Shown here: positions 5,747 through 28,335 of the stretch, piece after piece | How positions within the stretch are numbered: position 1 is the first letter of the stretch | How the letters are laid out: each line of letters begins with the position of its first letter | Source: a virus | Lineage: Duplodnaviria > Caudoviricetes | DNA: 28,524 bases | Strand: one strand, 5' to 3' | IMG/VR virus record: IMGVR_UViG_3300025880_000959 | Location: 1 to 28,524 of that record | The notes under the pieces: model-generated | What the model saw: the letters and a program-made list of their open reading frames with translations, nothing else | Database searches by the model: none | Told to the model about the DNA's origin: nothing | Program-made: the position numbers and the translations under genes

Positions 5747-6238
5747 TTAAATTTCGACTGTAGTAGTCGGCTCCTCTATTTGAAGTAATCCTGCTGGTGG
5801 GTTATTATGCCCAATCATGCTATCACTACTTCCAATAAACTCTTCTCGCTTTGAATCCCAATTCTTTAAAGCATCTTTGATACTTGCTTCTGCTAATACT
5901 GAACAATGCAGTTTGATAGGTGGCAACTCTAAGGCGGCCGCGATGTCTCTGTCTTTGATTAACTGTGCTTCTTCTACTGTCTTGCCTACTAGCATTTCAA
6001 CAAACATAGTTGAACTTGCTATAGCACTTCCACAACCATATGTTTTGAATTTAACATCAACGATCTTTTCGTTTTTGTCTAGTTTGAGTTGAAGTTTCAT
6101 AACATCACCACATGCGGGTGCGCCGGTCATGCCTGTTGCTACATCTTTATCTTTAGGATCAAATCTTCCTACTGAATGTTTCTCTGGATTTTTAAGGACG
6201 TCCTCGAACCTGTCTACTACTTTTTGTGAATATGCCAT
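5747..6238 (-). CDS. iscU: Fe-S cluster scaffold protein IscU
   Basis: MAYS.KV, GAPACGDVMKLQ, FKTYGCGSAIASS and LELPPIKLHCSVLAE; all three Cys and the LPP[VI]K chaperone motif are present. Confidence 0.95.
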   Translation of the reverse strand: MAYSQKVVDRFEDVLKNPEKHSVGRFDPKDKDVATGMTGAPACGDVMKLQLKLDKNEKIVDVKFKTYGCGSAIASSTMFVEMLVGKTVEEAQLIKDRDIAAALELPPIKLHCSVLAEASIKDALKNWDSKREEFIGSSDSMIGHNNPPAGLLQIEEPTTTVEI

Positions 6239-6516: not shown

Positions 6517-7398
6517 TTATTTTCCAATTGCGTTACCATAAATGTGTACGTGAACTCTGCTAGTATAGTAGTATCCACGTTGTATTGCTTCATCTGCAAT
6601 CGTTGCTTCAGTCTGTACTAGACCTTCATATGTTCCACCTACACCCATAATCCATACAGGAAAATTACATCCTGCTTCTCTAAACAGTTTTATATTTTCT
6701 TCTACTTCTCTCCAACTCTCGTCGGTTCCATTGACTACAAACTTTAACTGACCCTTGTTAGATACTTCTGCATATCTACCGATTACATCAGGCTTGATTG
6801 CTTTCTTAGATTTTTCACCAGCGGTCGCCCATAGTTTAGGACTCAGACTCCAGTACCATTCTCTGCCACCTGCTGACCAATTTTGTATAAAATTTGCAAA
6901 GTCATCTTCGATAGGTCTTGTACCATTTGTCTCAACAGTGACATAGTTAGGCATGTTATTTCTTTTACCGAACTCATCTAAGATATTCATCATACCAGGT
7001 TGTGTGCCTTTGATCATAGGCTCGCCTCCTGTAAACACCATGTGTGTTTCTTGTCCTGTTGCTGGATGTATGAACTTACCATGAGGGAGAAGTGCTGTCA
7101 GTTCGTCTACTGCTTCTGTTACAGTCTTATCAGTGATAAGATGCTTGTATTTCTTACTCCATGTATAAGAACTATCGCATCCTTTGTCAAACACAGGAAG
7201 ATCAAACACACTATCTATGTTTGTGATGTCGATAGTTTCATAAGGGAGTTCATATGTTTCTGGATTAGTAGGATCCTTCTGACCAAAACCATTACATTGT
7301 AGATTACATAAAAAGAAACGCATCCACAACGAGGGAATGCCTACATACTGACCTTCGCCTTGTGCAGAAAAGAATGTTTCACTATACTTTAGTGTCAT
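6517..7398 (-). CDS. queE: 7-carboxy-7-deazaguanine synthase (radical SAM)
   Basis: ETFFSAQGEG, RFFLCNLQC...CDS, VFTGGEP, VETNGT, LSPK, QLKFVV and C-terminal RVHVHIYG. Confidence 0.9.
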   Translation of the reverse strand: MTLKYSETFFSAQGEGQYVGIPSLWMRFFLCNLQCNGFGQKDPTNPETYELPYETIDITNIDSVFDLPVFDKGCDSSYTWSKKYKHLITDKTVTEAVDELTALLPHGKFIHPATGQETHMVFTGGEPMIKGTQPGMMNILDEFGKRNNMPNYVTVETNGTRPIEDDFANFIQNWSAGGREWYWSLSPKLWATAGEKSKKAIKPDVIGRYAEVSNKGQLKFVVNGTDESWREVEENIKLFREAGCNFPVWIMGVGGTYEGLVQTEATIADEAIQRGYYYTSRVHVHIYGNAIGK

Positions 7399-7591
7399 TA
7401 AGTGCCTGTTCTCTTGTTAATCCCATTTCTTTTAGTGCTTCATCTATTTCAAAGTCATAGTAAGCACCTGTCATTTTTCTTAGTTTGCTTCTTTCACTTA
7501 GCATAACGGAACTTTCCCAGCAACCCCATGCCATTACAACGATCACAATTGACCCTGCAAAATATATGAAGATATCATAAATCATAGACAT
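7382..7591 (-). CDS. Small membrane-anchored hypothetical protein
   Basis: N-terminal hydrophobic stretch; alternative start ATG at 7585. Confidence 0.65.
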   Translation of the reverse strand: MSMIYDIFIYFAGSIVIVVMAWGCWESSVMLSERSKLRKMTGAYYDFEIDEALKEMGLTREQALNDTKV

Positions 7592-7620
7592 ATTATAACT
7601 CCTTTAAGGTTAAATGTCAA
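7592..7620 (-). promoter_or_regulatory. Consensus sigma70 promoter upstream of the small ORF and queE
   Basis: TTGACA (7620-7615, includes the upstream TGA stop), 17 bp, TATAAT (7597-7592). Confidence 0.8.
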
Positions 7621-8177
7621 TCCTGCCACCAAGATTCCCAGGGGAAATCTAACCAAAGATCAGGTGTCTCAATTCTGTTAATAGTTTCAGCAAAATAATC
7701 TACATCGTTGAATGAACTAGATTCATTATTAATAAGAGTGGCAAATTTAACGTTGTGATTCCAGACTGTATTCCAAGACTGCTCATCTGGAAAGCATCCA
7801 GCCTCCCAATCATTTTTTATCCAGTTAAGTGTTGCTCCTGAATCATTGATGTCTTCTACAATTAAAATCTTTTTGCGTTTACTTATATCCCAACGACTTT
7901 TTGTTATTTTAATCTCTTCTGGTTCTAATGCTCCGAATGCGTCAACCGACATCCAACAGTTAGATTCAGGTCCTTGTTGAACATTGTCTCGTAATGAAAC
8001 ATCTAAAGCATACATTGGAACTTTAACATAATGTGAGATCATTATCGCAGGAAGTAATCCTCCTCGTGTAATGCCTACAATGTAATCAGGTCTAAAGTTG
8101 TCTAAATGCATTTGGCGTAGAATTTCTTGTACACTGTTTTTAACTTGGTGTAATGTTACTTTTTGTATATCGCTCAC
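7617..8177 (-). CDS. Type I phosphoribosyltransferase, xanthine/guanine PRT-like
   Basis: IVGITRGGLLPA, PRPP loop ILIVEDINDSGAT and C-terminal WLDFPWE. Confidence 0.88.
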   Translation of the reverse strand: MSDIQKVTLHQVKNSVQEILRQMHLDNFRPDYIVGITRGGLLPAIMISHYVKVPMYALDVSLRDNVQQGPESNCWMSVDAFGALEPEEIKITKSRWDISKRKKILIVEDINDSGATLNWIKNDWEAGCFPDEQSWNTVWNHNVKFATLINNESSSFNDVDYFAETINRIETPDLWLDFPWESWWQD

Positions 8178-8407
8178 CGCTCACTCCTAATGGCTTCAGC
8201 CATCGCTTCGTAGTCTTCATCAACAAAAGGAGATGGAATAATTCCGTTCTCCCAATTCTCCGCACAATCTTCAGCATATCGTATTGATTTGCCTTCAAGT
8301 TCCCTAGATTCCACAAGTTTACCATGTTCAAACATGTCTACAACATAAGTTATAGTTGTTCGTGCTTTTACTGTTGCTTTTCTGTTGTTATTACCGAATG
8401 TTCCCAT
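8174..8407 (-). CDS. Small hypothetical phage protein
   Basis: Start revised to ATG 8407 (TAATG overlap with upstream ORF); contains YAEDCAENWENG. Confidence 0.7.
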   Translation of the reverse strand: MGTFGNNNRKATVKARTTITYVVDMFEHGKLVESRELEGKSIRYAEDCAENWENGIIPSPFVDEDYEAMAEAIRSER

Positions 8408-8565
8408 TAGAATATCCATTGTAAAATTAACACAGTTGCAATCCCTTCAAAATACGCAAACCACATCATTTGATGATTAGAAAGGTTAAATTTCCATTTA
8501 AACTCATCTGTTATAGCAATGTGTATATCAGCTACTTTCTTAAACCATTCTTTAATTTTATTCAT
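8407..8565 (-). CDS. 52-aa putative membrane protein (not in ORF track)
   Basis: MNKIKEWFKKVADIHIAITDEFKWKFNLSNHQMMWFAYFEGIATVLILQWIF*; SD AAGGAG upstream; fills the gap exactly. Confidence 0.7.
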   Translation of the reverse strand: MNKIKEWFKKVADIHIAITDEFKWKFNLSNHQMMWFAYFEGIATVLILQWIF

Positions 8566-8764
8566 CCTTTTCTCCTTTAAATTTATCTTTGATTGGTCCG
8601 TTTTCTAATAGAAAACTACCAAACTTATCACTGTTAACATAATCTCTAAAAACTTTTTTCGCTTCTTCTCCATAGTGCATCAGATCATGTTTATACGGAA
8701 CTTCTAATTGCACTGTTATTCTAATAGTGTCTTCTGCAATCGGATTTGGATTTGGTGTTCCCAT
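8558..8764 (-). CDS. Small hypothetical protein
   Basis: Start revised to MGTPNPNP at 8764 (TAATG overlap). Confidence 0.65.
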   Translation of the reverse strand: MGTPNPNPIAEDTIRITVQLEVPYKHDLMHYGEEAKKVFRDYVNSDKFGSFLLENGPIKDKFKGEKDE

Positions 8765-8898
8765 TATGTTCCTGCTATAGTAATAAGAAAACCACCGAAT
8801 AACATGAATGCTGTTCCTATAACACCTAATATTATTTGTACTATGCCAAAGTGCCACAAGATAGCAAAAATAATAAGACTAAATAAAAAATTCCACAT
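8764..8898 (-). CDS. 44-aa hydrophobic peptide (not in ORF track)
   Basis: MWNFLFSLIIFAILWHFGIVQIILGVIGTAFMLFGGFLITIAGT*; TAATG overlaps at both ends. Confidence 0.7.
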   Translation of the reverse strand: MWNFLFSLIIFAILWHFGIVQIILGVIGTAFMLFGGFLITIAGT

Positions 8899-9155
8899 TA
8901 GTTTAACCCCAATACATTTAATGCACTGCTTAGTCCTGCGTTGTGTAATTCGATATGATCATCTACTTCTTTGATGATCTTATCAGACCCTTCTACTCCA
9001 GCACTTGTTAAACGTTCTACGATTCGTTCTCCATTGGCTTTAGGTTCTTCGTTTACAATTCGTTGAAAAACGTCTGCAACTGATGAACTCTGGCAACATT
9101 GTACTAATCGATCTCTCGTTATTGTAGAGTAATTTATCTGTTGTCCTACTGCCAT
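8898..9155 (-). CDS. Hypothetical protein
   Basis: 85-aa ORF with GAGG SD upstream, coupled to the downstream ORF. Confidence 0.7.
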   Translation of the reverse strand: MAVGQQINYSTITRDRLVQCCQSSSVADVFQRIVNEEPKANGERIVERLTSAGVEGSDKIIKEVDDHIELHNAGLSSALNVLGLN

Positions 9156-9239
9156 TTAAAACCTCGGTCTATTGTTGTTGTTAAAAAGTATTACAGCCAA
9201 CATATATATTATTATTATATAGAATATCCAATCTGGCAT
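9156..9239 (-). CDS. 27-aa single-helix membrane peptide (not in ORF track)
   Basis: MPDWIFYIIIIYMLAVILFNNNNRPRF*; starts in TAATG overlap with the queD stop and ends adjacent to the next ATG. Confidence 0.55.
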   Translation of the reverse strand: MPDWIFYIIIIYMLAVILFNNNNRPRF

Positions 9240-9763
9240 TAGATTTCAAATCCTGCCGAATTAGCACCATGTTCAAAACACTCAACTGATCTTACTCTTA
9301 CAGTAGGATTAAGTGATTTCTTCATGTACTTGGCTTTTTCTAAGATGATTGTCATTTGTTTGAATACTTCTTCAGCAAACTTCTCTGATCCTACGTTATC
9401 CATTACAACAACTCTAGCAAGACCACTTTTACCTAAGTCCTTGATAGCACCTAGTTGAGGGTCATTCTTTGCTACAACGATTGTATGATCAAACTTATCT
9501 TCTAGCCAGTCTTTGAGTTCTTTTAAACCACCAAAGTCTTGTACCCAGTTGCGTTCGTCAAGGCTATCACATTCAAACACAAGTTTGAATCCTAGTGAGT
9601 AACCATGCAGTAATGAACAATGAGAATGTTTTGCTTTCCATTGTCGGAAGCAACAACTAAGTCCTCTGTCATTACCATACGTTTTAGTAGAGAAGAAGGT
9701 TCCCTGAGGGAAGTCTATTGCTTCTACTATTGACTTTTCTTTTTTCTTTAATAATCCAAACAT
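9239..9763 (-). CDS. queD: 6-carboxy-5,6,7,8-tetrahydropterin synthase
   Basis: HCSLLHGY (CxxxHG), WVQDFGGLK, FDH, SEKFA and VECFE; ~20-aa N-terminal extension. Confidence 0.88.
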   Translation of the reverse strand: MFGLLKKKEKSIVEAIDFPQGTFFSTKTYGNDRGLSCCFRQWKAKHSHCSLLHGYSLGFKLVFECDSLDERNWVQDFGGLKELKDWLEDKFDHTIVVAKNDPQLGAIKDLGKSGLARVVVMDNVGSEKFAEEVFKQMTIILEKAKYMKKSLNPTVRVRSVECFEHGANSAGFEI

Positions 9764-9768
9764 AATGT

Positions 9769-9797
9769 ATTTTGCTCTCTTTTAGTTTAATTGTCAA
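9769..9797 (-). promoter_or_regulatory. Possible sigma70 promoter for queD
   Basis: TTGACA (9797-9792), 17 bp, CAAAAT (9774-9769); weak -10. Confidence 0.45.
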
Positions 9798-10234
9798 TCA
9801 GATTGGGCAGATACGACTCTTTTTCGCAAACTGCTTGAACTAAATGAATGATCTCTGCCGTTGTATATGATTTTGCTACCACGTTGTTTAGCAATATCTT
9901 TACCTGTAAATTCTTTATTCTTATATTCATCACCTAATACTCTCACATCTATTGGAAGTGTTAGTAAAAGGTCTATTAGGTCTTGTTCTGTGTTGTAGAT
10001 AACTATCTCATCAACATACTTTACTGCCGCTAGTTGTATCTGTCTTTCAACTATGCTTTGTACTGGTTTGTTCTTTGTTGGCCTGTCTTCTGTAGGATCA
10101 TTTTGTAGTCCTACGATTAAAAAGTCACAATGTCTCTTTGCTTCTTCAAGCATAGTGACATGTCCTGCATGTAGCAAGTCAAAAGTAGAACAAGTAAATC
10201 CTATTCTACCTGAATCCTTATAATGTAACTTCAT
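9794..10234 (-). CDS. Cytidylyltransferase-family protein (TagD/RfaE-II-like)
   Basis: STFDLLHAGH (HxGH), LIVGL, ER..QL, VDE, G.EY and FSSSSLR; start revised to 10234 (ATGA overlap). Confidence 0.88.
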   Translation of the reverse strand: MKLHYKDSGRIGFTCSTFDLLHAGHVTMLEEAKRHCDFLIVGLQNDPTEDRPTKNKPVQSIVERQIQLAAVKYVDEIVIYNTEQDLIDLLLTLPIDVRVLGDEYKNKEFTGKDIAKQRGSKIIYNGRDHSFSSSSLRKRVVSAQSD

Positions 10235-10830
10235 TCTGTACCCCATCCTATAAAAAATAGCATTCTCTGATAGCCTTCTAAGTCATGTGTTATCTCATTG
10301 ACTCTATGTGCTTCATCTCTGCTGTATATTAGTAATCTGTTTGGTTTAGGTAAAAATGTGCCTTCGTCTTTGCTAAACACTATCTCACCTTTATAATTTT
10401 CTTCCCAAGTATCATGCATATACAAAATACTAGTAAACGATTGTTCCGCAGTGCTATTACCCAATGGTGGATCTGTATGTTCTTGTACATGTTGTGCTTT
10501 TGATTGATATTGAAACCACATACTACGAACATTTGGCTTAGTCAAGTTGAGTTCGTTCATGCGTTCGTTGATATTCTTTGTTACTTGTGGCAATGAAGGA
10601 GAACGTAAATACCATGCAACATTAACATATTCACTATCTATAGCACCATACTTTTCATGTGGGTATAGATATCTAATTGGACCAACTTCTGCAAAGTTAT
10701 CACCTGACAATGCTTTGCCATATCTAGGATCATCATTCCATTTTTCATTAGGATCAAATCTGTTAAGCATTTCTTTATTCAATGATTCAAACAAATCATT
10801 GGAAAGAAAATTGTCAGTCACGCAATACAT
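10231..10830 (-). CDS. 2OG-Fe(II) oxygenase
   Basis: N-terminal DNFL, HTD, ILYM...W...YKGE, PKPNRL, H.V and distal R; start revised to 10830 (TAATG overlap). Confidence 0.82.
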   Translation of the reverse strand: MYCVTDNFLSNDLFESLNKEMLNRFDPNEKWNDDPRYGKALSGDNFAEVGPIRYLYPHEKYGAIDSEYVNVAWYLRSPSLPQVTKNINERMNELNLTKPNVRSMWFQYQSKAQHVQEHTDPPLGNSTAEQSFTSILYMHDTWEENYKGEIVFSKDEGTFLPKPNRLLIYSRDEAHRVNEITHDLEGYQRMLFFIGWGTE

Positions 10831-11060
10831 TACTTTGTCAACACCTGCATCATCTTTGCCTGAGATTGTTCTTTTAACCAAACCTCTTCGGTATCACCGA
10901 ATGTTGGTGCGTTTTCTATTACATTGTCTAACATAAACTTTAGTAGATACAAATCTTGTTTGACTCCCCAACGAACATAGCCATCATTGTGAAAAGAATT
11001 CATCTCTACGATTGCTTTACGAATTTCGCTTGTGCAATAAGGAACATCCATATTAGGCAT
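10830..11060 (-). CDS. Small hypothetical protein (paralog of 24148-24369)
   Basis: 76 aa, TAATG-coupled to folE; EMxxxxNDG...APTF motif. Confidence 0.75.
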   Translation of the reverse strand: MPNMDVPYCTSEIRKAIVEMNSFHNDGYVRWGVKQDLYLLKFMLDNVIENAPTFGDTEEVWLKEQSQAKMMQVLTK

Positions 11061-11734
11061 TACTGCATCCTTGCTATACTTAAGAACTCTGCCCTTAGTG
11101 CAGGGTCTGATCTAAACCCACCACCTAATTTACTTGTTATAGTAGAACTACCTGCATCTTCAACACCCCTAGATTTAACACAGTAATGTTGTGCATCGAT
11201 TAAGACTGCTACATCTTCTGTGTTCAGGATAAATGATAGTGCGTGATATACTTGCTCAGTTAGACGTTCTTGTATTTGAGGTCTTTTAGAAAAATATTCT
11301 ACAACTCTGTTAATTTTAGATAGACCTAATACAGTCTCGTTCGGAATGTATGCTACAGTTGCTAGACCATCGATTACTACAAAGTGATGTTCACAATTAG
11401 ATTGTACATTGATGTTTCTTTCTACAACCATTTCGTCATACTTCATCTTGTTATCAACTACAGTTGCTTTAGGGAAAGCATCATAGTCTAGTCCCCAAAA
11501 GATTTCGTTGACATACATCTTAGCAACACGTTTAGGTGTGTCCATTAGACTGTCATCCTTAAGATCAAGTCCTAATGTTTCCATGATTGTATCAAATGAC
11601 TTTTCGATTTTGTCGATTTTGTCTGTACGAGATAGACCATTGTCAATGACTGGAGTTTCTACTCCCATTGAGACTAAATGATCGTGTACTTGTTGCCCTA
11701 GAACCGGGTCGGTTTTTGTTTTGTTATAAGACAT
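11060..11734 (-). CDS. folE: GTP cyclohydrolase I
   Basis: TPKRVAKMY, SNCEHH, GLSKINR, RPQIQERLT and HYCVKSRG. Confidence 0.96.
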   Translation of the reverse strand: MSYNKTKTDPVLGQQVHDHLVSMGVETPVIDNGLSRTDKIDKIEKSFDTIMETLGLDLKDDSLMDTPKRVAKMYVNEIFWGLDYDAFPKATVVDNKMKYDEMVVERNINVQSNCEHHFVVIDGLATVAYIPNETVLGLSKINRVVEYFSKRPQIQERLTEQVYHALSFILNTEDVAVLIDAQHYCVKSRGVEDAGSSTITSKLGGGFRSDPALRAEFLSIARMQ

Positions 11735-11780
11735 TTGTCTTTTCTCCTTCCTAACGCGGATAAATTAATTCAATTGTTTG

Positions 11781-11810
11781 TGTAGCCTTTGTGCTACATT
11801 AGTATTTATA
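11781..11810 (-). promoter_or_regulatory. Exact T4 late promoter consensus followed by a hairpin in the folE leader
   Basis: TATAAATA (11810-11803), then TGTAGC-ACAAAG-GCTACA (11798-11781). Confidence 0.6.
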
Positions 11811-12816
11811 CATTATACGATGATATGTTATATTTTTCAAGTATAAAGGGTAATATAACTTGATCTACAAAGTCCTTGTGTTGTTCTGAACCTGGATGTG
11901 GATCACCTTTACGTGGAAAATCATGTTCTGACACGTGATTTACCCAATGATGCAGGTTACGAACTGGCAAAAATGTATCTCTGTCAATCATCTTGTAAAG
12001 GTAATTTACTTCAGGGTGTGTATCTTTAATTGATACTTCTTCTAATTCTTTTTCAGGGTCTCTGCCTCGATTAAAAAGTGCATTATGATGAACTGCTACT
12101 CCTTCTACAAAATCAAATTTGTCTGCATAAAAATGATTTATCACCGGCCCATGCGGACCACAATATGTAAATACATCAAAATCATACTCAGTCATAAAAA
12201 AAGGTATCCCATGCATTTTTAAAAACCATTGTGTTCTTAAAACATGTTCGCATGTTTGCATAATTGCATATGTTGGATTTACATAGTTTGCAAAATATTC
12301 AATAGTCTTTTTATCTCTCCAATGAGCATTGAGTGAATAATGTCCCATATGATTAGGATTACGTATTGATGTAGGAGAGGCGGCTTGCCAGGCATTTGAT
12401 TGTTCTCTTAGTCGTTCTTCATCGATACTACTAACAAATTTTCCTTGGTAATCGAATCCTGCCATGCCTGTTTCTGCTCTTAAAAAATCTTCCATCATCT
12501 CAGTATGCGATTCACACTCAGGAATATGAGTTGTTGATTCATATGTTGCAGGAGTATCACTAAAATACAGCATTCGATCACAACCAGACCACATAACTCC
12601 TACTAAAATATCTTTTGGATTATATCCTTCTGACAATGCAATCTCAACTGCACTAATAACAGAACGAGATATGAATTCATTACCATAAGAACCTTGTCCA
12701 GAGTAACTTATTTTTTCAGGATTTAATGCTTTGACCATCCAAACTGGCCATGGTGTGTCTCGTGTTCTAATTTGAGAGTATGAACAACCACCTGAGATAA
12801 AGACTTTTGTTTTCAT
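11806..12816 (-). CDS. SGNH/GDSL-like hypothetical protein
   Basis: GGCSYS, GSYGN, VMWSG..R and C-terminal DPHP....H. Confidence 0.6.
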   Translation of the reverse strand: MKTKVFISGGCSYSQIRTRDTPWPVWMVKALNPEKISYSGQGSYGNEFISRSVISAVEIALSEGYNPKDILVGVMWSGCDRMLYFSDTPATYESTTHIPECESHTEMMEDFLRAETGMAGFDYQGKFVSSIDEERLREQSNAWQAASPTSIRNPNHMGHYSLNAHWRDKKTIEYFANYVNPTYAIMQTCEHVLRTQWFLKMHGIPFFMTEYDFDVFTYCGPHGPVINHFYADKFDFVEGVAVHHNALFNRGRDPEKELEEVSIKDTHPEVNYLYKMIDRDTFLPVRNLHHWVNHVSEHDFPRKGDPHPGSEQHKDFVDQVILPFILEKYNISSYNV

Positions 12817-13424
12817 TTAATATCTATCCATGTAAAAATTTGTACAATTCTAGCAGTATCATCAGTTGATCCAAAGCAAGGCCCGATGCCATGAAACTTG
12901 TATGCTGGGTAAATAAGTAATCTATTGTAGATCACATTAGAACTTGTATGCATAGTCCATTGGTTTATATCTTTGTCTTCTTTATTCAATACTAGAGTAT
13001 TTAGTTGGTCTATACTTAGCAACCGATCTAACCCAGTTGAGTTTTGCTTATAAAATAACGTTCCTGGAGTTGATTCTTGGTCTTTAGAAAGATACAAGAC
13101 ACCTGCATAATAGGAATTATCACTGCTATCTGCATGGACAACATTATCAAACATACCTTGCTGTCCTTCTTCCTTGCTTATTCTAAATTTGCCACTGTCT
13201 AGTTGTCTCATTTGTCTGAGATTCTTATGTAAGTGTTTAGATACTACTGCATCAATCCAAGCAGGACTGTGTGCATCTTTACTCATCTTGCCAGACCACG
13301 GCGCATTACCATGGGGAAATCCTTTTGATACCTTTTCAGGATAGTAGTCACATGTAAGTGCAACCTCTCTTACAAGATCAGGTTCATCATAAAAATTATC
13401 AATGATAGTTAGACTGGCATCCAT
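12813..13424 (-). CDS. 2OG-Fe(II) oxygenase-like protein (DUF6445-like)
   Basis: IIDNFY..P..VR, HAD, GVLYL, GT.FY, YNRL..Y....FH and R.VQ.F. Confidence 0.75.
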   Translation of the reverse strand: MDASLTIIDNFYDEPDLVREVALTCDYYPEKVSKGFPHGNAPWSGKMSKDAHSPAWIDAVVSKHLHKNLRQMRQLDSGKFRISKEEGQQGMFDNVVHADSSDNSYYAGVLYLSKDQESTPGTLFYKQNSTGLDRLLSIDQLNTLVLNKEDKDINQWTMHTSSNVIYNRLLIYPAYKFHGIGPCFGSTDDTARIVQIFTWIDIK

Positions 13425-14563
13425 TAGTTATTTTCAAATACTTTATTATATTGATTATTTACTCTAACAAATGTAGTACACTTACTTAAATCTTTGAGCA
13501 TACGTGCTCCTGCGTAAGTACAGGCGCTTCTAATACCCCCTAAGATGTCTTGTACTGTGTTTCTGACTGAGCCTTTATATGGAATCTTTACAGTTCTACC
13601 TTCAGAACTTCGGTAGTCTTTGAGTCCTCCAAAATGCTTAGTATTAGCAGTATCACTACTCATGCCATAGAATTGTATAAACTTCTTTTCTTCAGTTTTA
13701 TGTTTACGGTTTGTCAAATGATCTCTAACTTCGTACTCAATTTCATTTGTTTCATAAAACTTAGTGATTATGTCACCACCGCCCTCATCATGTCCTGCTA
13801 ACATGCCACCTAGCATTACAAAGTCTGCACCAGCACCAAATGCTTTTGCTACATCTCCAGAACTACTACAACCGCCATCAGCAATGATGTGTCCACCAAG
13901 ACCATGAGCGGCATCGGCACATTCAATGATTGCCGATAGCTGGGGATATCCCACACCAGTCTTAATACGAGTAGTGCAAACACTACCAGGCCCAATACCC
14001 ACTTTAACGATATCTGCTCCACTTAATATTAACTCCTCTGTCATTTCACCTGTCACTACATTGCCTGCAATGATAACTAACTCCGGGTATTTTTCTCTAA
14101 TCTGTTCTACTGTAGTCGCAAAACGTTCTGAATATCCGTTAGCAACATCAATGCACAAAAACTTGAGAGGGTTTAAACTCATAACTTTGTCAAGTTTTTC
14201 TAAGTCTTGTTCAGCAATACCGATACTCATTGCAACATAACATCTTTTTGCAAGACCGTTACCAGTAGTAAAGTATTCTACTAACTCTGGTGCTGAATAA
14301 GTCTTAACTAAACAAGTAAATAATTCTTGTTTAATAAGAGCATCAGCCATTTCAAATGTACCGACCCCATCCATATTCGATGCCATGATCGGCACCCCTG
14401 AGTAGTGTCCAGGCCTTTCTGTATTTTCAGGGAAGTCCGGATCGTAATTTCTAAAAGTATAACTTCTGCGAAGATCAACTTCTTTGCGAGAGCCCAGTGT
14501 TGATCTTTTGGGTTTTATAAGTACATCTGAAAAATCTAATTTAACTTCAGATTCTATTCTCAT
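13424..14563 (-). CDS. guaC: GMP reductase
   Basis: [51 protein letters not shown] and YRSSEG. Confidence 0.95.
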
Positions 14564-15750
14564 TAAAATTTTGCCTCTCTTGTGTGCTTTCTATAGTCAG
14601 TTGACATTCTCAACCATTCTTCGCCTTTGCCATCCATGATGTCAATACAACGATCAATTGTTCCGTTAGTCCAATCAGAGATATCGCCTATCTTAGAATG
14701 TGGACCAACTAGTAATGGATGTAATTTACCTATTGCATCTTCAAGTGACCATGGAAGATAAAGTCTGTCTATATCATTAGCAAATGTTTCAGGGAAACTT
14801 CTATAAGCAGGGAACAGAACATTACAACCTAATGCATCACCTTCTGAGACTGTATTGCTTACCCAGTCTTGCAATGCACAATTAAAGATAACTCTAGTAT
14901 CATTTAGCAAACGATAGTAATCGTTCTTAGATAGATTCTCGTGGATAACTAGTTTCTTTTGCTTCTGCAATTTCCTTGTACGTTTCATATATGAATCGTT
15001 ATTGCTTTTTAGTTCTCCACCTGAGAATACACAGAATTCTATACCATGATCTTTACCATATCTTTTATACCATTCTTCAATAAGGTCCATATAAAAGTCA
15101 GGTTGTTTCTCTTGGTCCCAACGAGCAGTAAATGCTACTCTCATTTTACGATCAGGAAAGTCTTTATATTCTTCTAATTCTAGTAAACGTCTGCGTACTT
15201 CGTCTTTACCAAATGCAAGACCTGAGATATTATAGATAGGAGCAGTCCAACCTGCTATCTTCATGTGAGCAACCATTTCTTCGTTAGTTGCTAAGACACC
15301 AGTAACAAATTCATTGACCATCTTTTCGTAAAGACCCATCCACTTCTCCATGCCCCAGACATGTACGAAATCATCTGGGTCAACAGATTGTGCTAAACAT
15401 CTTACAAAGACTTTAGGTCTGTGTTCTTCAGCAATTTGATCCATGATATAAGGAAGTGATTCGATACCAGGCTGAAACATATCTTCAAAAAAGATACAGT
15501 CTTCACTTGTTACTTCACCTTCTTTCATCAGTTTAACTAAAGACATCATCTGTGACATACCAAAGTATGAACGACCATGTGCATCTAACACTTGACCTGT
15601 TACAATAGATTGATCAGTTGATAATAGATCACCTGGGACAACTACATAATCAAGTTTGCGTTTATCAAAAGCCTCAGTACTCCAGTCTTGTAATTGCAAA
15701 GTGTATCTTGCTTCATAAGGCTCAAGTCCCATATAATATAATCGTCTCAT
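14563..15750 (-). CDS. GT-B fold glycosyltransferase
   Basis: [27 protein letters not shown]...SFPE resemble the GT4-like nucleotide-sugar-binding C-terminal domain. Confidence 0.75.
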
Positions 15751-16562
15751 TTCTTATCTCCGTTTAAACTTATTCGTTCTATGTCACTTTCAACACAACT
15801 TTCACCGTATTGTATTTCTATAATTTTTAGTGGTTCATCTGTCATGTTACGTAGTTGATGCCAACTCTTTTTGGGTATCCATGTCGAACCAAACTTATCA
15901 AAATTACCTAAATCCTTGTATGTCCCATCAGCATGTATGCTCCACACTGTTGCTATTCCTTCACTGACAAACCAAAACTCTGCTCGACTTTTATGTCGTT
16001 GCATACTTAGTGTTTTGCCTGGGTCAACAGTAAGTTCTTTTACTTTAACATATTCTGATTCTTCATGCAACACACGATAGTAACCCCATTTACGTTGAGT
16101 CTTTGGAGCCTTCCATTCTTGTAGGATCCATGAACTTGAATTCTTTTTGTCTTTGCCTCCTACACCAAACTCAAATGACACATTAGAATCATCTAAATCC
16201 ATTTCAGGGATATTCGTTTTAGTTCTATCACCACCGTTTGCATAAATGATATGACTGTCAGGGAACTCTGCTCTCAATTTTACAATCGCATCCTTACCAC
16301 TATCGTCACTATCATCAAATGTCATTACACCATCAACAGAACCAAGTGCAAACAATATTGCTACACGTTCATCAATAGGCATGAACGACCTGCCCTTCTT
16401 ACGAGCAAGCCATTCATCACTGTTAACTCCCACGATAAGTTTTGATCCTAACTCTTTAGAAGCATCTATATAAGATAGATGTCCTTTGTGTATAGGATCA
16501 AACCCACCTGTGATCAATACGATATTATCGGCGTTGATAGCGTTTCTCAAATCGTCTTGCAT
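15747..16562 (-). CDS. Cytidylyltransferase-family / mannose-6-phosphate isomerase-type cupin fusion
   Basis: N-domain TGGFDPIHKGH, GVNSD.WL..KKG and ANGGDR; C-domain R.WG.Y, LSMQRH..RAE.W, H.L.N and IEIQYG...E.DI.R. Confidence 0.88.
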   Translation of the reverse strand: MQDDLRNAINADNIVLITGGFDPIHKGHLSYIDASKELGSKLIVGVNSDEWLARKKGRSFMPIDERVAILFALGSVDGVMTFDDSDDSGKDAIVKLRAEFPDSHIIYANGGDRTKTNIPEMDLDDSNVSFEFGVGGKDKKNSSSWILQEWKAPKTQRKWGYYRVLHEESEYVKVKELTVDPGKTLSMQRHKSRAEFWFVSEGIATVWSIHADGTYKDLGNFDKFGSTWIPKKSWHQLRNMTDEPLKIIEIQYGESCVESDIERISLNGDKK

Positions 16563-16740
16563 CTACGTCCCACATGTTGGTAACTTGCTTACCAGCCAGA
16601 TATTTTTGGTTATACAATCTCCAAACATAACTGCGATTGTTGTACAAGTCTGCGGGTTCATATCGAAACCCGAAGTCTTTTGTGAAGGCTGTGTAAGCCT
16701 CAAGGTCCTCAAAAACTTGAACAGTTTTAGGGTTTGACAT
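16525..16740 (-). CDS. Small hypothetical protein between dpdL-like gene and sugar module
   Basis: 71-aa aromatic-rich ORF with AAGGA SD upstream; preferred over the overlapping 16563-16760 frame. Confidence 0.7.
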   Translation of the reverse strand: MSNPKTVQVFEDLEAYTAFTKDFGFRYEPADLYNNRSYVWRLYNQKYLAGKQVTNMWDVDARRFEKRYQRR

Positions 16741-16772
16741 TGTAATATTCCTTCTCTCATATTACCTTAGTG

Positions 16773-17186
16773 TTATGCATCCGAGTTATTCGGATACTCC
16801 ATTTCGCAACCGTTTTCGTTATCTTCGGCTACTGAAATCTTTATGTAACGACCTGGATACTTTGTTTGTATTTCTAATGCCAAATCGTCTGCGATCATTT
16901 CACAACTCTTATGATTAAGTTGTAATACACTTGTACTGCTTTCTACTTCTGCGTACAAACGTTCTAACCATCTTTTAAACTGTATAAATTCGATATCTCT
17001 ATCATCATGGAAGACCTCAATCCATACTTTGAAGTGAAATATATGTCTGTGAGGGTAGCCTAAGAACGATACATCGTCCCAGTCACCTGTCGCAAGTTTA
17101 GGATCAGTATCAGCACCAGGATACATGTGTATACCTTCTTTGCTAAATGTTACCCATATAGTTCTTTGTGCTGTTTTGTCAGTCAT
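16773..17186 (-). CDS. dpdL: QueD-like T-fold protein, DpdL-like (candidate CDG decarboxylase)
   Basis: EGIH.YP, LGYPHRHIF (LxxxHRHxF), DRDIEF, SCEMIA and V.ED.ENG; lacks the QueD CxxxHG motif; adjacent to the TGT-like gene. Confidence 0.65.
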   Translation of the reverse strand: MTDKTAQRTIWVTFSKEGIHMYPGADTDPKLATGDWDDVSFLGYPHRHIFHFKVWIEVFHDDRDIEFIQFKRWLERLYAEVESSTSVLQLNHKSCEMIADDLALEIQTKYPGRYIKISVAEDNENGCEMEYPNNSDA

Positions 17187-17228
17187 AGTGCTATGATACT
17201 CATTTTTAGTGTTAAAGTCAATGACTTT
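17183..17228 (-). promoter_or_regulatory. sigma70-like promoter overlapped by two palindromes
   Basis: TTGACT (17221-17216), 17 bp, TATCAT (17198-17193). Palindromes AAAGTCA-A-TGACTTT (17214-17228) and TCATAG-TG-CTATGA (17183-17196). Confidence 0.7.
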
Positions 17229-17230
17229 GG

Positions 17231-18799
17231 TTAATCAATCACTGCTTGAATGGCTTCGTCACTGTCTTCCATGTCTTCATCATTATTTACTTCAACAGTT
17301 TCGTCTACTGAAAAAAGTTGATCAAACATAGTACCTGCATTGACAGACCTTTTGCCTGAATTTCCTTGTGAACCTGATTGTATTTGCATCCATAGTCTGC
17401 TGTGTTGATCGATCAAGTCTAATGACTTCTGTCTATCATTAAGTGAGAATATTTCTTCAACAATTTCTCCGAATCTGATACGATCAAAAGTTTCATTCAT
17501 CAACATCTTAGGGATATTGCCTTGCTCATACTGTCGATTTGCTTCTTGTACAGCAAACATGTGTTGATACACATTATGTGCTTGAAGCATAGTATAACTC
17601 AATGTGTCCCAACTAGTCTTAGTTTCTTTACCATGTTGACCTAAGAAACCATGTCCTCTATAACATAAGTCTTTTAATACTAATGCTTTTGTTACAGGAG
17701 ATTCGGCAAACTTTTCATGTATACCATCTGCTAATACTGCGTCTGTGAAGGGCCTATTATCGTTTGCATAGTCTTTGTTCTCAGCAGTCTTCTCCATAGA
17801 GTAAGTCCACTTAGTGTTATGTTCCATTGTTGAGTTATTGTATGCTAATCCTTTTGCCGCCGCAAAGAAAGGTGATGCACAATCAAACGTAATCTTTAAC
17901 TTAGGATTGTGATACTTTCTTACTGCTTTTTGAATATCTGTAAACAATACTGCATACTCTAAAATAGATGTTCCTAGACAATGAATAAGATCATGCTTAC
18001 CTTCTTCTAATAAGCCATCATGTATAATATGTACAATACGTTTTAGTGTTAGATGTATGTCAATCTTGTTTTGACCACCGAATGCCCAACCATTAAAGTG
18101 ATTGTCTGGGTATGCGTTAGGATCGCAATACATTTTCATTTGCTCATACCATTCATCTGACTGAGAATGATTTCCACCTTGCAATACATTAAGAAACTTA
18201 CAAGCACCACTTCGATTATGAATAAAATAATCATTATTGATATGTGTAGCAATCATTGCATCTTCGATTGTTTTGATACCATGTACTGATTTACCATCTT
18301 TACCTTTAACGTGATATGTACCTAATGACATTGACGGTATATCTAAACACATACCATAATCCATGTATGCATCCATCCACTTCAGAACTTTTATACGTTG
18401 CTTCATTGCACGTGGGCAATTAGGATCTTTCCAGTCTGCGGGCCACTGACACTTTAGGATCTGAAAACCACCAGAGTCTCCTAACATGAATGTGCCTTCT
18501 TCCCGCTCTCGGATAATAGATTCACTAGGAATGTCTTTAGTGATGTCTAAGTCGGCGTGGCCCGCAGAATACAACCCCCATTTGTAAGTGTATAATCCTT
18601 CTTTAGAATTTAGAAAGTTAAGACGTTCAACATCTCCGTTGAAGCCTGCAGGAATACGTTCTTGTGGAAAGTACTCTTCGCCTTTGCGTTGCTTACCTAA
18701 ACCAGCAATAAAGAAACTACTAACAGCAGGTAAAAACAATGCCCAATCATCATCTTGTTGTGCTGAAAGATTTACTTGTTCTACCATATTTTTATCCAT
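17231..18799 (-). CDS. dpdA: TGT-fold guanine transglycosylase, DpdA-like
   Basis: GDSGGFQ, CLDIP, LNVLQG, GWAFGG, IHCLGTS, TFDCAS and late HN occur in the order expected for the TGT barrel; located among folE/queD/queE in a phage. Confidence 0.8.
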   Translation of the reverse strand: MDKNMVEQVNLSAQQDDDWALFLPAVSSFFIAGLGKQRKGEEYFPQERIPAGFNGDVERLNFLNSKEGLYTYKWGLYSAGHADLDITKDIPSESIIREREEGTFMLGDSGGFQILKCQWPADWKDPNCPRAMKQRIKVLKWMDAYMDYGMCLDIPSMSLGTYHVKGKDGKSVHGIKTIEDAMIATHINNDYFIHNRSGACKFLNVLQGGNHSQSDEWYEQMKMYCDPNAYPDNHFNGWAFGGQNKIDIHLTLKRIVHIIHDGLLEEGKHDLIHCLGTSILEYAVLFTDIQKAVRKYHNPKLKITFDCASPFFAAAKGLAYNNSTMEHNTKWTYSMEKTAENKDYANDNRPFTDAVLADGIHEKFAESPVTKALVLKDLCYRGHGFLGQHGKETKTSWDTLSYTMLQAHNVYQHMFAVQEANRQYEQGNIPKMLMNETFDRIRFGEIVEEIFSLNDRQKSLDLIDQHSRLWMQIQSGSQGNSGKRSVNAGTMFDQLFSVDETVEVNNDEDMEDSDEAIQAVID

Positions 18800-24147: not shown

Positions 24148-24369
24148 ATGATATTACCACATAGTGAAAAAGCAGAACACATAATATGGGAACTTGAATA
24201 CGAGATGAAGAATCCTCGTAACGATGGTTGGACTGGCAGAGACATGAAACGTAGACTGTGGGATATCAAAATGAAAGTAGATAAAGCATTAAAAGATGCT
24301 CCTACCTATGTTGATGAACCTGAATACGAAGACCTCTATCTAATCGAAAAACTGAAGGACACCATATGA
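24148..24369 (+). CDS. Small hypothetical protein (paralog of 10830-11060)
   Basis: Start revised to MILPHS at 24148, downstream of the promoter; ATGA overlap with the dehydrogenase. Confidence 0.75.
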   Translation: MILPHSEKAEHIIWELEYEMKNPRNDGWTGRDMKRRLWDIKMKVDKALKDAPTYVDEPEYEDLYLIEKLKDTI

Positions 24370-25157
24370 AGTTAGGCATCATTGGATCAGGATTCGTTGG
24401 TTCAGCAGTAGCAAATGGTTTTAGTGTAGACACTGAGCAAGTTATAGTTGATCCAAAGTTTACAGACAATACACTTGAAGACTTAGAAGATACTGAGATT
24501 GCATTTGTATGCGTTCCTACTCCACAACAAGATACACACTTAGATGTAGACACATCTATTGCACGTGGCGTACTAACAGAATTAAATAAGTTAGAGTACA
24601 AAGGTGTGGTCGTTGTCAAGTCTACTATCACTCCACATCATCTAAAACAGTTTAAGACACTTTACAGCAAATTACGACTAGTATATAACCCTGAGTTTTT
24701 AACTGAAGCAAATAGTAAACAAGAATTTATCAATCCACATATGCAAATACTAGGTGGAGATTTACAAGACTGTATTGAAGTAGAACAAGCATACATCAAT
24801 CATAGCAAAGTTAAAATTGTGCCTACGTTTAAGACAGACTTGACATCAGCAAGTCTAATCAAATACACAATCAACAGTTGGTTAGCAACTAAAGTAACAT
24901 TCTTTAATGAGTTATTTCATTTGCATCAATCAAGTCATGCCGAAACATCATGGGAACAGTTTACAGATATGCTAAAACGTGATCCAAGAGTAGGCGATAC
25001 TCACATGCAAGTGCCTGGACCCGATGGTGAATTTGGCTTTGGTGGACATTGTTTGCCTAAGGACACAAAGGCATTGCTTTACTATTCTAAACTAGAGGGT
25101 GCGCCACTAGACTTACTAGACGAAGTAGTTAAAAGTAATAGTGGTATTCGCAATTAA
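24366..25157 (+). CDS. ugd: UDP-glucose/GDP-mannose 6-dehydrogenase family protein (short form)
   Basis: GSGFVG, CVPTP, KST, NPEFL, K...N..LA..V.F.NE and GFGGHCLPKD; ends before the usual C-terminal domain. Confidence 0.88.
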   Translation: MKLGIIGSGFVGSAVANGFSVDTEQVIVDPKFTDNTLEDLEDTEIAFVCVPTPQQDTHLDVDTSIARGVLTELNKLEYKGVVVVKSTITPHHLKQFKTLYSKLRLVYNPEFLTEANSKQEFINPHMQILGGDLQDCIEVEQAYINHSKVKIVPTFKTDLTSASLIKYTINSWLATKVTFFNELFHLHQSSHAETSWEQFTDMLKRDPRVGDTHMQVPGPDGEFGFGGHCLPKDTKALLYYSKLEGAPLDLLDEVVKSNSGIRN

Positions 25158-25825
25158 GCAGAGTTTGCTCTTAATTTCTTAATAAAATCAATCGATTTTT
25201 GAGTACGAACACCTGTTACTTGTAAAGTAACTCGTGGATGATGCCCTGCATTTGCTGTACAGTGAGGAACATCTTGCCATTTAAATGTAGTCACATCGCC
25301 TGCTTTCCAATGAGCAAAGTTATAGTTACCGTAACCCCAAAACTGTCCCGGTTGCCAATCTGTTAGTTGAATCATATATCTTTCTACAGTGCTTGGGTCT
25401 TCAGGGTTCCATTTCTCTAACTTGTCCATGTGTAAGTTCCATACTTGACCTGGATGCTGTACATGAACTCTAGTCATCATGTCATCTAAACCAAACTGAT
25501 CTGCAATTGCTTGTATGTTAGGTGGCACTTCCCAGTTAAGATTACTGACAACATAGTCGATACCATAACCGGTCTTTTCTAAGTCATAGTCTTCAGTCTT
25601 AAATTCATCTTCTCCTCTGACTTTAGATTCTTTTTTAGGGTTACCTCTTGTACGCCAAGTTGCTTCTTTCGATTCTGCTACAACTTTGTCTAATTCTTCT
25701 TGTGTGATGCTACTCAAATCAATTATACCCACTCTATCAACTGTATCATATAGAGGATGCATCAACTCAGGGTCAAAGTGATAATTGCTTCTTAGTTTTA
25801 ATTGTTCCCAACTGCTTTGTGTCAT
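25154..25825 (-). CDS. Double-stranded beta-helix / 2OG-Fe(II) oxygenase-like protein
   Basis: Q.PGQ...LHMD, W..GD, PH.TANAG..PR.TLQ.TG (HxD...H...R). Confidence 0.7.
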   Translation of the reverse strand: MTQSSWEQLKLRSNYHFDPELMHPLYDTVDRVGIIDLSSITQEELDKVVAESKEATWRTRGNPKKESKVRGEDEFKTEDYDLEKTGYGIDYVVSNLNWEVPPNIQAIADQFGLDDMMTRVHVQHPGQVWNLHMDKLEKWNPEDPSTVERYMIQLTDWQPGQFWGYGNYNFAHWKAGDVTTFKWQDVPHCTANAGHHPRVTLQVTGVRTQKSIDFIKKLRANSA

Positions 25826-26454
25826 AATAATACTTTTACTTTAATGTCTTTTTGTTTATAATCTTGTCGATATATTTCAGGAGGAAGATCAATATGTAAC
25901 CAATCTGATAATTGAATGTTATTGTATACTTCTGTGCCTTTGTGTTTATACCAAGAAGTCATTATATCTTTGTTTTGTTCAGTAATGATCTTGGACATCT
26001 CTTTCAAGTTCTTATAGTATTTATGATATAGAGGGTATGTGATATCAAAATGTCCACACTTTACCCACCAACCTAAACATGCGTCATCATCTCTGTGAAC
26101 TAATATAATAGGACAGTCTGGCCAGTTCTCTTTGAGAAAATCTATGTGATGTGCGAACACATGACTCTTAATTATTTTTACTTTGTCCTCATCTGCATTA
26201 GAGAAAGGACTGTCAAACTCTGCTTCACAAACTTCTTTAGAATAATTTGGTAGTTCGTCAAAGAAACCACCGAACTCCATACCTGGATCAAAATATGCAC
26301 CCAAATGCATTAATTCTTTTTCTCCACTAGCATCATGCCAATATAATCTATCTGGACTATAATCAGATGTATCGATTGACTTACTAAAATAAATGTTCTT
26401 ACATACACTACTCCATTTAGATCCTGGAGCTCCTGCTACAAATATATACTTCAT
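25822..26454 (-). CDS. P-loop sulfotransferase/kinase-like protein
   Basis: YIFVAGAPGSKWS, IIKSH and IILVHR; start revised to MKYIF at 26454. Confidence 0.6.
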   Translation of the reverse strand: MKYIFVAGAPGSKWSSVCKNIYFSKSIDTSDYSPDRLYWHDASGEKELMHLGAYFDPGMEFGGFFDELPNYSKEVCEAEFDSPFSNADEDKVKIIKSHVFAHHIDFLKENWPDCPIILVHRDDDACLGWWVKCGHFDITYPLYHKYYKNLKEMSKIITEQNKDIMTSWYKHKGTEVYNNIQLSDWLHIDLPPEIYRQDYKQKDIKVKVLL

Positions 26455-26455
26455 A

Positions 26456-27007
26456 CTAGTCCCACAATCCCTCAAAATATTTCCCAAACAGTTTGAAGCC
26501 GTTTGTGATACGCTCTTGGTATGCTGTGCGTCCTTCCCAATCAATTTTAAATGTATCGTTAGGACCTTTGACCATTTCACTATGGCCTTTGTGTTTACCT
26601 TCAGTTATGTCAATCCACTGAACATCGTGTTCACCTGAGTGGAACTGCTCTTCCCAATCGTTATGTTTGCTTTCAAAGGCAAAGATCATTTCATCCATCA
26701 CCCAATCCCAGCGTTCAAAGAACTTGCTGTCAGTCTCACCATTTTTAGTGTATGCTGTTAGTTCTTTCTTAGTAGGACGCAACTCTGCAGGTACATCTTC
26801 AGGGTACACATACGGAGAACCGTGCTTGGTCTCTTTGAGTTGCTTGAGCATTGGCAAGATAATATATGCAAGAGTGTGATCCATGCTCCACGTATCAAAG
26901 TTATCAATACGAACTGATACTTTCTGTTCGTTGGTAATGCCCAACTTATATAGAAAGTTGTGATACCAACGATGTTTTGGATACCCGCCAATTTTAACTT
27001 TCATCAC
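26456..27007 (-). CDS. Conserved-looking phage hypothetical protein
   Basis: 183-aa Trp-rich ORF (DTWSMDHTLA, RWDWVMDEMIFAF, LFGKYFEGLWD) with GAGG SD. Confidence 0.75.
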   Translation of the reverse strand: MMKVKIGGYPKHRWYHNFLYKLGITNEQKVSVRIDNFDTWSMDHTLAYIILPMLKQLKETKHGSPYVYPEDVPAELRPTKKELTAYTKNGETDSKFFERWDWVMDEMIFAFESKHNDWEEQFHSGEHDVQWIDITEGKHKGHSEMVKGPNDTFKIDWEGRTAYQERITNGFKLFGKYFEGLWD

Positions 27008-27029
27008 TCTACCTCTACAAATATATACT

Positions 27030-27695
27030 TCATATATTTCTCTCTTTCTTTGTTCTAATACCGTCTAACACTTCTTTGTCAAGCCAATATTCATCTACAT
27101 ACTTGACATACTTGTGATTTGCATCTTCATTAATGAACTTCATCATATCTGGATTGTCATGTGCAATTGGAAAGTCTAAGACTTTGCTGATATACTTTAG
27201 ATAGTGAGACTTGTGTAAGAAGAATGCTTCATGGTCTAAGAAATGTGTGTTATAGTCTAACAGATTGTCATAGTAATAGTCAAGTGCTATGGGCATAGTG
27301 ACTTCTTTTCTGACTCTAAGTTGTTGTGCTTCGTTGATGTTCTTGTCTCTAACGATGATACCGATAGTAACGTCAATGCCTAACTGAATACATTCATCTG
27401 CAAATTCTTTGATCTTAGGAACGTAACGTACACCATCATACATGAAAGGACAACTGACATTTGCTACCCAATAGTCATGTTCACTGAAGTCAAAGTCTTT
27501 TAAACGTTCTGGATAGACCCAATACTCAGCAAATGTTTCTTCATCACTAGGTACCCAATACTTGTCATGTAATTCTTTCCAACCACCTACGTCATCATGT
27601 AGACTAAACAGTCTACTGAATAGATGATTACCAGACCCTTGAGGTCCTGTGATGATTAAGAGTTTCTTATTTGTGATATCGTTGCTGTCCAACAT
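27030..27695 (-). CDS. P-loop sulfotransferase/kinase-like protein
   Basis: LLIITGPQGSGNHL and IIVRD resemble the 5'-PSB and 3'-PB regions. Confidence 0.6.
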   Translation of the reverse strand: MLDSNDITNKKLLIITGPQGSGNHLFSRLFSLHDDVGGWKELHDKYWVPSDEETFAEYWVYPERLKDFDFSEHDYWVANVSCPFMYDGVRYVPKIKEFADECIQLGIDVTIGIIVRDKNINEAQQLRVRKEVTMPIALDYYYDNLLDYNTHFLDHEAFFLHKSHYLKYISKVLDFPIAHDNPDMMKFINEDANHKYVKYVDEYWLDKEVLDGIRTKKERNI

Positions 27696-28335
27696 AAGTC
27701 CTGATCTTTAATGGATTAACTTCGTCTGTAGGACCTGTGCCACTGTCTGGAGACCATACAAAGACAATTACATCTTCATCTTCACAGATAAAGTTATGTA
27801 AACAGTTTCTACGCATAAAGAATATCTCTCCTTCATTGATATCATAGAACTCTTTGTTATCTAATTCTATTTTGCCGTTGCCTCTGATGACTAGGCCAAC
27901 TCTGTGAGAAGGATGCGTGTGTAATGTTTGATACATATGAGCAGGGAAATGCACATAGTTAATAACTGGGTCGCCTAGTCTGCCTGGATTGATAGCAGTA
28001 GTATTCGTACCACCGTCCATGTAACTTAAGTTACCCATGTCTAAACATTCTTGTATAAAGATACGAGTTTCTAATAAACTAAGTCCAGGAAAATCAACGA
28101 TACATGCAGAACTGTTTTCTCCACATGATACACTGAAAGCATCTCTTGTATTGACACATCCATACTTGTATGATAATGAGATGTCTTTGCTATCAAAACT
28201 AGCATTTCTCATCATAACATATGCCATGCCGATTGGCGTATAACTTTTAACTTCGTGGGATTCTACTTTAATAATTTTCAGATTCCAGCGATCTTTTATA
28301 TCTAACTCTCCGAAAACGTTTGTCATACCTTTCAT
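27667..28335 (-). CDS. Cupin-domain protein
   Basis: QTLHTHPSHRVGLVIRGNG, GEIFF and LHNF. Confidence 0.75.
   Translation of the reverse strand: MKGMTNVFGELDIKDRWNLKIIKVESHEVKSYTPIGMAYVMMRNASFDSKDISLSYKYGCVNTRDAFSVSCGENSSACIVDFPGLSLLETRIFIQECLDMGNLSYMDGGTNTTAINPGRLGDPVINYVHFPAHMYQTLHTHPSHRVGLVIRGNGKIELDNKEFYDINEGEIFFMRRNCLHNFICEDEDVIVFVWSPDSGTGPTDEVNPLKIRTYVGQQRYHK

Follow-up and report, generated by a model that had tools for sequence, protein, structure and literature searches.

A glycosyltransferase linked to DpdL-type 7-deazaguanine DNA modification genes in a jumbo phage fragment and its relatives

The gene block and its core proteins

The window analyzed here, a 28,524-nucleotide stretch that makes up the whole 28.5-kb source contig (IMG/VR record IMGVR_UViG_3300025880_000959; Duplodnaviria, Caudoviricetes), carries at positions 6,517 to 18,799 a set of genes for 7-deazaguanine DNA modification with a glycosyltransferase (GT) gene embedded among them. 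With its completeness estimated at 8%, the contig is a fragment of the genome of a marine jumbo phage. Marine and estuary metagenomes contain DNA nearly identical to it, in five studies once possible source samples are excluded. A preliminary description of this DNA saw folE, queD, queE, a dpdA-like gene and a second T-fold gene as one co-directional block, and placed a 71-aa open reading frame (ORF), a nucleotidyltransferase-cupin fusion and a GT-B glycosyltransferase downstream of the T-fold gene; all of them are present, all on the minus strand (Table 1). Read along that strand, the genes begin with polB, which is followed by a 243-aa gene, a 217-aa ORF, dpdA, dpdL, the 71-aa ORF, the cytidylyltransferase-like (CTP-like) cupin fusion (CTP-cupin), the GT, guaC, two more ORFs, folE, several small ORFs, queD, a phosphoribosyltransferase (PRT) gene and queE, with about ten non-conserved ORFs interspersed among the pathway genes.

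The window encodes FolE, QueD and QueE, the three enzymes with which a DpdL-type system begins. The motif of its QueD reads CxxxHGY in place of CxxxHGH. The T-fold protein has the LxxxHRHxF motif and the three histidines, matches the DpdL proteins of PA5oct, ACP17 and phiST by tblastn and QueD by hhalign (93% probability), and retains all 12 pocket residues of phiST DpdL (G18, H20, L42, H46, R47, H48, F50, R63, E66, S94, E96 and E121) that are named in the supplement of Cui 2023 (PMC10516641). The same paper proposes that DpdL, a QueD paralog, decarboxylates 7-carboxy-7-deazaguanine (CDG) to 7-deazaguanine (DG), as the preliminary description had also stated.

The window DpdA found no match in Pfam, PHROG, NCBIfam or PDB sequence searches and was identified by fold search alone: the Foldseek matches listed for its AlphaFold model, which has a predicted local distance difference test score (pLDDT) of 86.6, are tRNA-guanine transglycosylases (TGTs), the best at E 1e-7. 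It is 33% identical to PA5oct QCG76197, a protein entered as DpdA3 in Cui 2023 (PMC10516641), and carries DSGGFQ, HxLG and FDCASP motifs, as befits the transglycosylase of a DpdL-type system.

The GT has a profile match to GlgM, and its model (pLDDT 96) finds SPS, BshA, GlgA and PglA as its top structural matches. It combines two Rossmann domains with an Arg...Lys pair for the diphosphate (R210 and K215) and an acidic-x7-acidic motif (D295-x7-E303), features that together place it among the retaining GT-B enzymes of the GT4-like kind. These residues are conserved across 130 homologues, and the GT looks catalytically intact. Among GT-B folds, T4 alpha-glucosyltransferase (AGT) ranks 25 in the structural comparison, and neither AGT nor its beta counterpart BGT is in the list of sequence matches. 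The window GT belongs to a different subfamily from the GTs of PA5oct/Paride and ACP17, with about 23% identity to the ACP17 GT and 66% to that of BUCT-ZZ01.

Table 1. Features of the gene block, in window coordinates
Feature	Position	Strand	Evidence
QueE, CDG synthase (core)	6517..7398	-	phrog_2076 (phage QueE PHROG), E 1e-49; NCBIfam QueE matches below cut-off
Xanthine/guanine PRT-like protein (frequent neighbor)	7617..8177	-	PF00156; 59/150 GT loci
QueD, CPH4 synthase (core)	9239..9763	-	PF01242 (PTPS Pfam) and phrog_2389
Second cytidylyltransferase-like ORF (optional neighbor)	9794..10246	-	Domain match
FolE, GTP cyclohydrolase I (core)	11060..11734	-	NCBIfam FolE above cut-off
GMP reductase GuaC (optional neighbor)	13424..14563	-	NCBIfam above cut-off; 20/150 GT loci
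GT4-like retaining GT-B glycosyltransferase, 395 aa (core, new component)	14563..15750	-	Profile, model fold, conserved residues
Cytidylyltransferase-like and cupin fusion (optional neighbor)	15747..16562	-	Pfam CTP_transf_like, MannoseP_isomer; 29/80 close loci
Conserved 71-aa ORF	16525..16740	-	79/80 close loci
DpdL, T-fold QueD paralog, 137 aa, proposed CDG decarboxylase (core)	16773..17186	-	LxxxHRHxF, tblastn, hhalign, pocket residues
Sigma-70-like consensus site before dpdL	17193..17221	-	10/12 matches; no evidence of function
Long-type DpdA, DNA guanine transglycosylase, 522 aa (core)	17231..18799	-	TGT fold, identity to PA5oct protein, motifs

Linkage of the glycosyltransferase to the deazaguanine pathway

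Eighty close loci were collected around near relatives of the window GT, and two further GT subfamilies were sampled from viral and metagenome contigs, giving 322 GT-anchored loci in all; 172 with a GT flank shorter than 4 kb were excluded and 150, duplicates included, were kept. In the close loci dpdL accompanies the GT in 77/80, the three misses beginning less than 1.5 kb upstream of the GT, and dpdA and folE are each found in 72/80. Across the 150 loci, folE, queD or queE is present in every one, DpdA in 148 and DpdL in 145, and dereplication by GT identity changes little (DpdA and DpdL in 106 and 104 of 107 loci at 90%, 29 and 28 of 30 at 70%, 13 and 13 of 13 at 50%). The median gap between dpdL and the GT is 253 bp, and 94/104 pairs lie within 1.5 kb of each other. 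An independent life of the GT, which the preliminary description had named as the observation that would speak against a role in DNA modification, is thus almost never seen in the 150-locus count, whether from dpdA, from dpdL or from folE/queD/queE. The GT is a dedicated core partner of the DpdL-type 7-deazaguanine pathway.

A different origin of this arrangement would be a host-surface or virion glycan module, made up of the GT, CTP-cupin, GalE and Ugd, that is merely located in the region. Jumbo cyanophages have clusters of GTs, HIGH nucleotidyltransferases and cupins that have been ascribed to surface polysaccharide (PMC7824862), and this suits CTP-cupin, GalE and Ugd, whose presence varies from locus to locus: CTP-cupin is found in 29/80 and ugd in 3/80 close loci, CTP-like genes in 44/150 GT loci and 1/13 at 50% dereplication, and GalE or Ugd in 90/150 and 3/13. 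CTP-cupin, GalE and Ugd were accordingly rejected as core genes, being present in only some GT loci, and the earlier idea that they are fixed parts of the system or dedicated suppliers of the sugar donor is not supported. For the GT the same explanation meets a linkage that holds down to about 20-35% GT identity, in compact queD-queE-folE-dpdL-GT-dpdA operons as well as in other gene orders, and a scan of 185,579 prokaryotic genomes, made with one pattern from one GT subfamily, that returned two short contigs of metagenome-assembled genomes only. One of these two matches lies beside a gene of an accessory family labelled EVE and the other beside EVE and dpdL. The co-occurrence counts thus largely refute a surface-glycan role of the GT, which we regard as scarcely credible.

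The glycosyltransferase follows the type of DpdA

The same question was approached from dpdL, with 53 dpdL-anchored loci, 8 of them without DpdA in view and 45 compared. Long DpdA occurs with the GT in 20 and without it in 4, and the short, phiST-type DpdA3 with the GT in none and without it in 21; dereplication leaves 12, 2, 0 and 9 loci in the same order, with a p of 6.7e-5 that ignores kinship and counts Phosso by its distant dpdA. The GT-less sample, which is small and partly redundant, comes from an ACP17-seeded scan and from cultured phages, because a scan of viral contigs with phiST DpdL found nothing. Among whole cultured dpdL genomes the GT is present in 6/12 (PA5oct, Phosso, ACP17, BUDD, BCSR5 and BUCT-ZZ01) and absent from the other six (phiST, RHph_I1_18, Ahp1, Bakedbeans, D479 and MA9V-3). 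In a quick DpdL tree of 124 columns the GT-less rows stand at several places, forcing at least five changes. Seen from dpdL, the presence of the GT goes with the type of DpdA and not with the biosynthetic genes.

This bears on the idea that the product of the GT lies outside DNA, as a soluble pterin or deazaguanine glycoside serving storage, detoxification or as a UV screen, with plain 7-deazaguanine or CDG deoxynucleosides (dDG or dCDG) in the DNA. DpdA is present in 148/150 GT loci, and the GT tracks the DpdA type in preference to the biosynthetic genes; both observations speak against this idea, which we consider distinctly improbable.

The two DpdA types are well separated. The window protein, at 522 aa, lies outside the short DpdA3s of about 260-290 aa and differs from them in motifs and charge; the short proteins are very acidic and mostly devoid of the DSG motif, and a profile of the long family did not match them. 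A P-loop ORF lies within 2.5 kb in 10/21 short-DpdA3 loci versus 21/295 long-DpdA loci. A nucleotide-kinase-like gene often adjoins short DpdA3 genes (L084, L089, L091, L092, L128-L134) and is fused to DpdL in L128 and L130-L134. Short DpdA3s may, to judge from these sequences, work at the nucleotide level, as a pre-replicative route to full dDG replacement, a reading that departs from the post-replicative view of Cui 2023.

The DpdA proteins found with the GT fall into four classes: the long PA5oct-like class, an ACP17/BUDD class that is DpdA2-like, a weaker relative of the latter, and a class of about 300 aa that its motifs suggest to be DpdA1-like. On the GT tree the four are mixed with one another, 9 changes being needed where the minimum would be 3, which indicates that the GT and dpdL stayed together as DpdA was exchanged.

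The question of QueC

Neither QueC nor QueF was found in the 28.5-kb contig, in agreement with the preliminary description, and its term "QueC-less" holds for the module, in that 47 related records yielded no QueC of full length; for the phage's own genome, of which the contig covers 8%, the term is unproven. Pfam QueC matches occur in 11/47 of these records, 4 over cut-off and all partial, and two of the partial matches presumably resemble NAD synthetase, going by their motifs. A QueC supplied by the host or encoded elsewhere in the genome would lead to preQ0 or 7-amido-7-deazaguanine (ADG), so that a known base would be inserted, with or without a sugar on its amide or amine. The low completeness of the contig leaves room for such a gene, divergent QueC-like C-terminal matches are found in four records (G003, G004, G012 and G015), and phages may complement a deazaguanine pathway with host enzymes (Iyer 2021). 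Against it, no full QueC is present in the 47 records, 5/6 cultured GT phages have no Pfam QueC match at all, QueF over cut-off was found in 0/26 records, and almost every GT locus retains an intact DpdL, which makes a QueC-dependent route very improbable. One GT-carrying jumbo phage encodes, about 180 kb from the locus, a divergent PP-loop protein that resembles QueC and has clustered cysteines at its C terminus (L378:1024-1719); the partial matches in G003, G004 and G012 are similar.

A proposed pathway and its relation to known systems

We hold with moderate confidence that this is a DpdL-type 7-deazaguanine DNA modification system in which the dedicated GT adds a sugar to the base after its insertion by DpdA. 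By established chemistry FolE, QueD and QueE make CDG from GTP. The free base would be the substrate of DpdL, which would probably decarboxylate it to DG as Cui 2023 proposes. Going by its TGT fold and motifs, the long DpdA would then exchange a subset of guanines for this base after replication, and the GT4-like enzyme, going likewise by fold and motifs, would transfer a hexose with retention from a nucleoside diphosphate sugar, probably host UDP-glucose. The sugar could be attached to DG at N2 or at a pyrrole carbon or, should CDG be the base inserted, at its carboxylate. It would likely serve to conceal the base, both from restriction enzymes and from the glycosylases by which bare DG is excised.

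DG offers no obvious hydroxyl acceptor for a sugar, which weighs against this interpretation. The four long-DpdA loci without GT are exceptions to the pattern; one is a fragment of 5.9 kb, and the others form a single clade (L101-L103) known from fragments of 26-32 kb. The gene order in that clade is folE, dpdL, a 505-aa DpdA2-like gene and queE.

The order of the last two steps could also be reversed, the GT glycosylating free DG or CDG and the long DpdA inserting the sugar-bearing base, with the same kind of product. The tightest linkage of the GT is that to DpdL, the DpdL pocket in the model of Cui 2023 (PMC10516641) admits the free base only, and the GT is acidic and has small-molecule GT4 enzymes as its nearest structures. 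Such a route would require four divergent DpdA classes, including one of about 300 aa with other pocket-loop sequences, all to accept a glycoside, and we judge it rather unlikely. A complex predicted for the GT and three copies of DpdL scored 0.03 and carries no weight either way.

Of the known systems, the nearest is that of phiST, which shares with the window FolE, QueD, QueE, the DpdL motif and pocket residues, a TGT-fold DpdA and the lack of QueC at the locus. It differs in its short, acidic DpdA3 of 259 aa (a class mostly without DSG), its kinase-like and MazG neighbors, its full replacement of G and its lack of a GT, whereas the window has a 522-aa DpdA with TGT motifs, the GT and the 71-aa ORF. 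Plain dDG with full G replacement was measured for phiST (Cui 2023, PMC10516641), whose genome lacks the GT. The dpdA-GT-dpdL loci of PA5oct/Paride (Pseudomonas) and ACP17 (Acidovorax), both listed as DpdL phages by Cui 2023 (PMC10516641), have the same gene set as the window. PA5oct DNA resists five restriction enzymes, which its authors read as modified G (PMC12191111). Expression of ACP17 dpdA and dpdL in E. coli yielded no dDG (Cui 2023, PMC10516641); the gene that lies between these two in ACP17 is the GT. The main text of that paper contains no word beginning with "glycosyl" and its supplement a single unrelated one, and the GT appears not to be discussed there. A phage with bare DG was restricted by 17/22 tested glycosylases, and phages with 7-substituted bases were mostly spared (bioRxiv 2025.10.29.685425).

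Like T4 AGT, which acts on 5-hydroxymethylcytosine, the GT has a retaining GT-B fold and would belong to a two-step scheme in which a base is first modified and then shielded by a sugar. The DNA glycosylation known from phages is, to our knowledge, on pyrimidines. Mannosyl- and galactosyl-queuosine of animal tRNA carry a sugar on a 7-deazaguanine derivative; they differ in being tRNA nucleosides with the sugar on a cyclopentenediol side chain, made by unrelated enzymes. A literature search that covered few subscription papers found no glycosylated deazaguanine base in DNA, in line with the earlier remark that such a hypermodification was not known to be characterized. A computational survey of base modifications by Iyer et al., in Nucleic Acids Research in 2013, may already predict a link between GTs and deazaguanine.

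Accessory and neighboring genes

The 71-aa ORF has no match in Pfam or Atlas and is confined to the long DpdA class, with 174/191 long-DpdA loci versus 0/125 loci of other DpdA classes. It overlaps the annotated start of CTP-cupin by 38 bases (16525-16562). The promoter under which the preliminary description placed these genes is a consensus match before dpdL (17221-17193), of a kind no commoner in the window than in shuffled sequence (66 found versus 73 expected).

EVE is an accessory family of 140-180 aa, absent from the window and found only in GT-carrying dpd phages (80/150 GT loci; 11/27 GT-carrying records versus 0/12 GT-less ones), examples being L252:8689-9213, L093:7219-7704 (ACP17 gp122) and L367:9241-9999. 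Its gene often lies between dpdA and dpdL, is fused to DpdL in some loci, and is present in 5/5 GT loci lacking a local dpdL; a marine clade with EVE-GT-dpdA and queD/queE/folE has no local dpdL (L201, L203-L206, L357, L361-L363 and L371). The family has no Pfam match and no meaningful PDB or Atlas match, and hhalign gave it 0.4% to QueE over 21 columns. A second GT family of about 450 aa (L081:9364-10707, L307:14218-15570) lies 3-10 kb away in 38/150 GT loci; its gene adjoins dpdA in BUCT-ZZ01, and it could extend the sugar.

Several other genes were rejected as core from their frequency in the close loci: two oxygenase-like ORFs (1/80 and 3/80), GuaC (20/80), and the 336-aa and 217-aa ORFs (14/80 and 1/80). 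The PRT-like neighbor possibly salvages the guanine that is released, and the 243-aa gene next to polB is, judged by its position, probably a sliding clamp. Elsewhere the window encodes a phage-borne Fe(II)-trafficking protein (759-1079), an IscU/NifU-like scaffold (5747-6238), which could serve the radical SAM enzyme QueE, and the UV endonuclease UvdE (1502-2527). Upstream of polB, at 24366-28335, Ugd, sulfotransferase-like and cupin ORFs form what looks like a variable sugar-tailoring island. The GT, CTP-cupin, dpdA and queE are each covered in part by metatranscriptome contigs of one estuary study, which may be DNA.

Implications

The system in the window appears, from its gene content, to be a widespread and testable variant of the DpdL system, in which the glycosylated base is a prediction. 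The chances seem evenly balanced that widespread aquatic and clinical phages carry a glycosylated 7-deazaguanine, with the sugar on a ring nitrogen or carbon or on the carboxylate of CDG, and that DpdL systems split into two strategies. Short DpdA3 would then serve full replacement by bare DG at the nucleotide level, and long DpdA with the GT would serve post-replicative insertion followed by sugar shielding from DG-excising glycosylases. If true, this would add to DNA a new nucleoside, a sugar-bearing purine, and with it a new glycosyltransferase chemistry, in a GT family whose viral contigs number in the hundreds to thousands (for two subfamilies the estimates are about 1600 and about 2800 stretches). 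The GT could be a component missing from the failed DpdL reconstitution. The sugar-bearing base would be measurable in phages already in culture, would name the modified G of therapy-relevant PA5oct/Paride-like phages, and would make it possible to test directly whether a sugar shield overcomes the defense glycosylases specific for DG.

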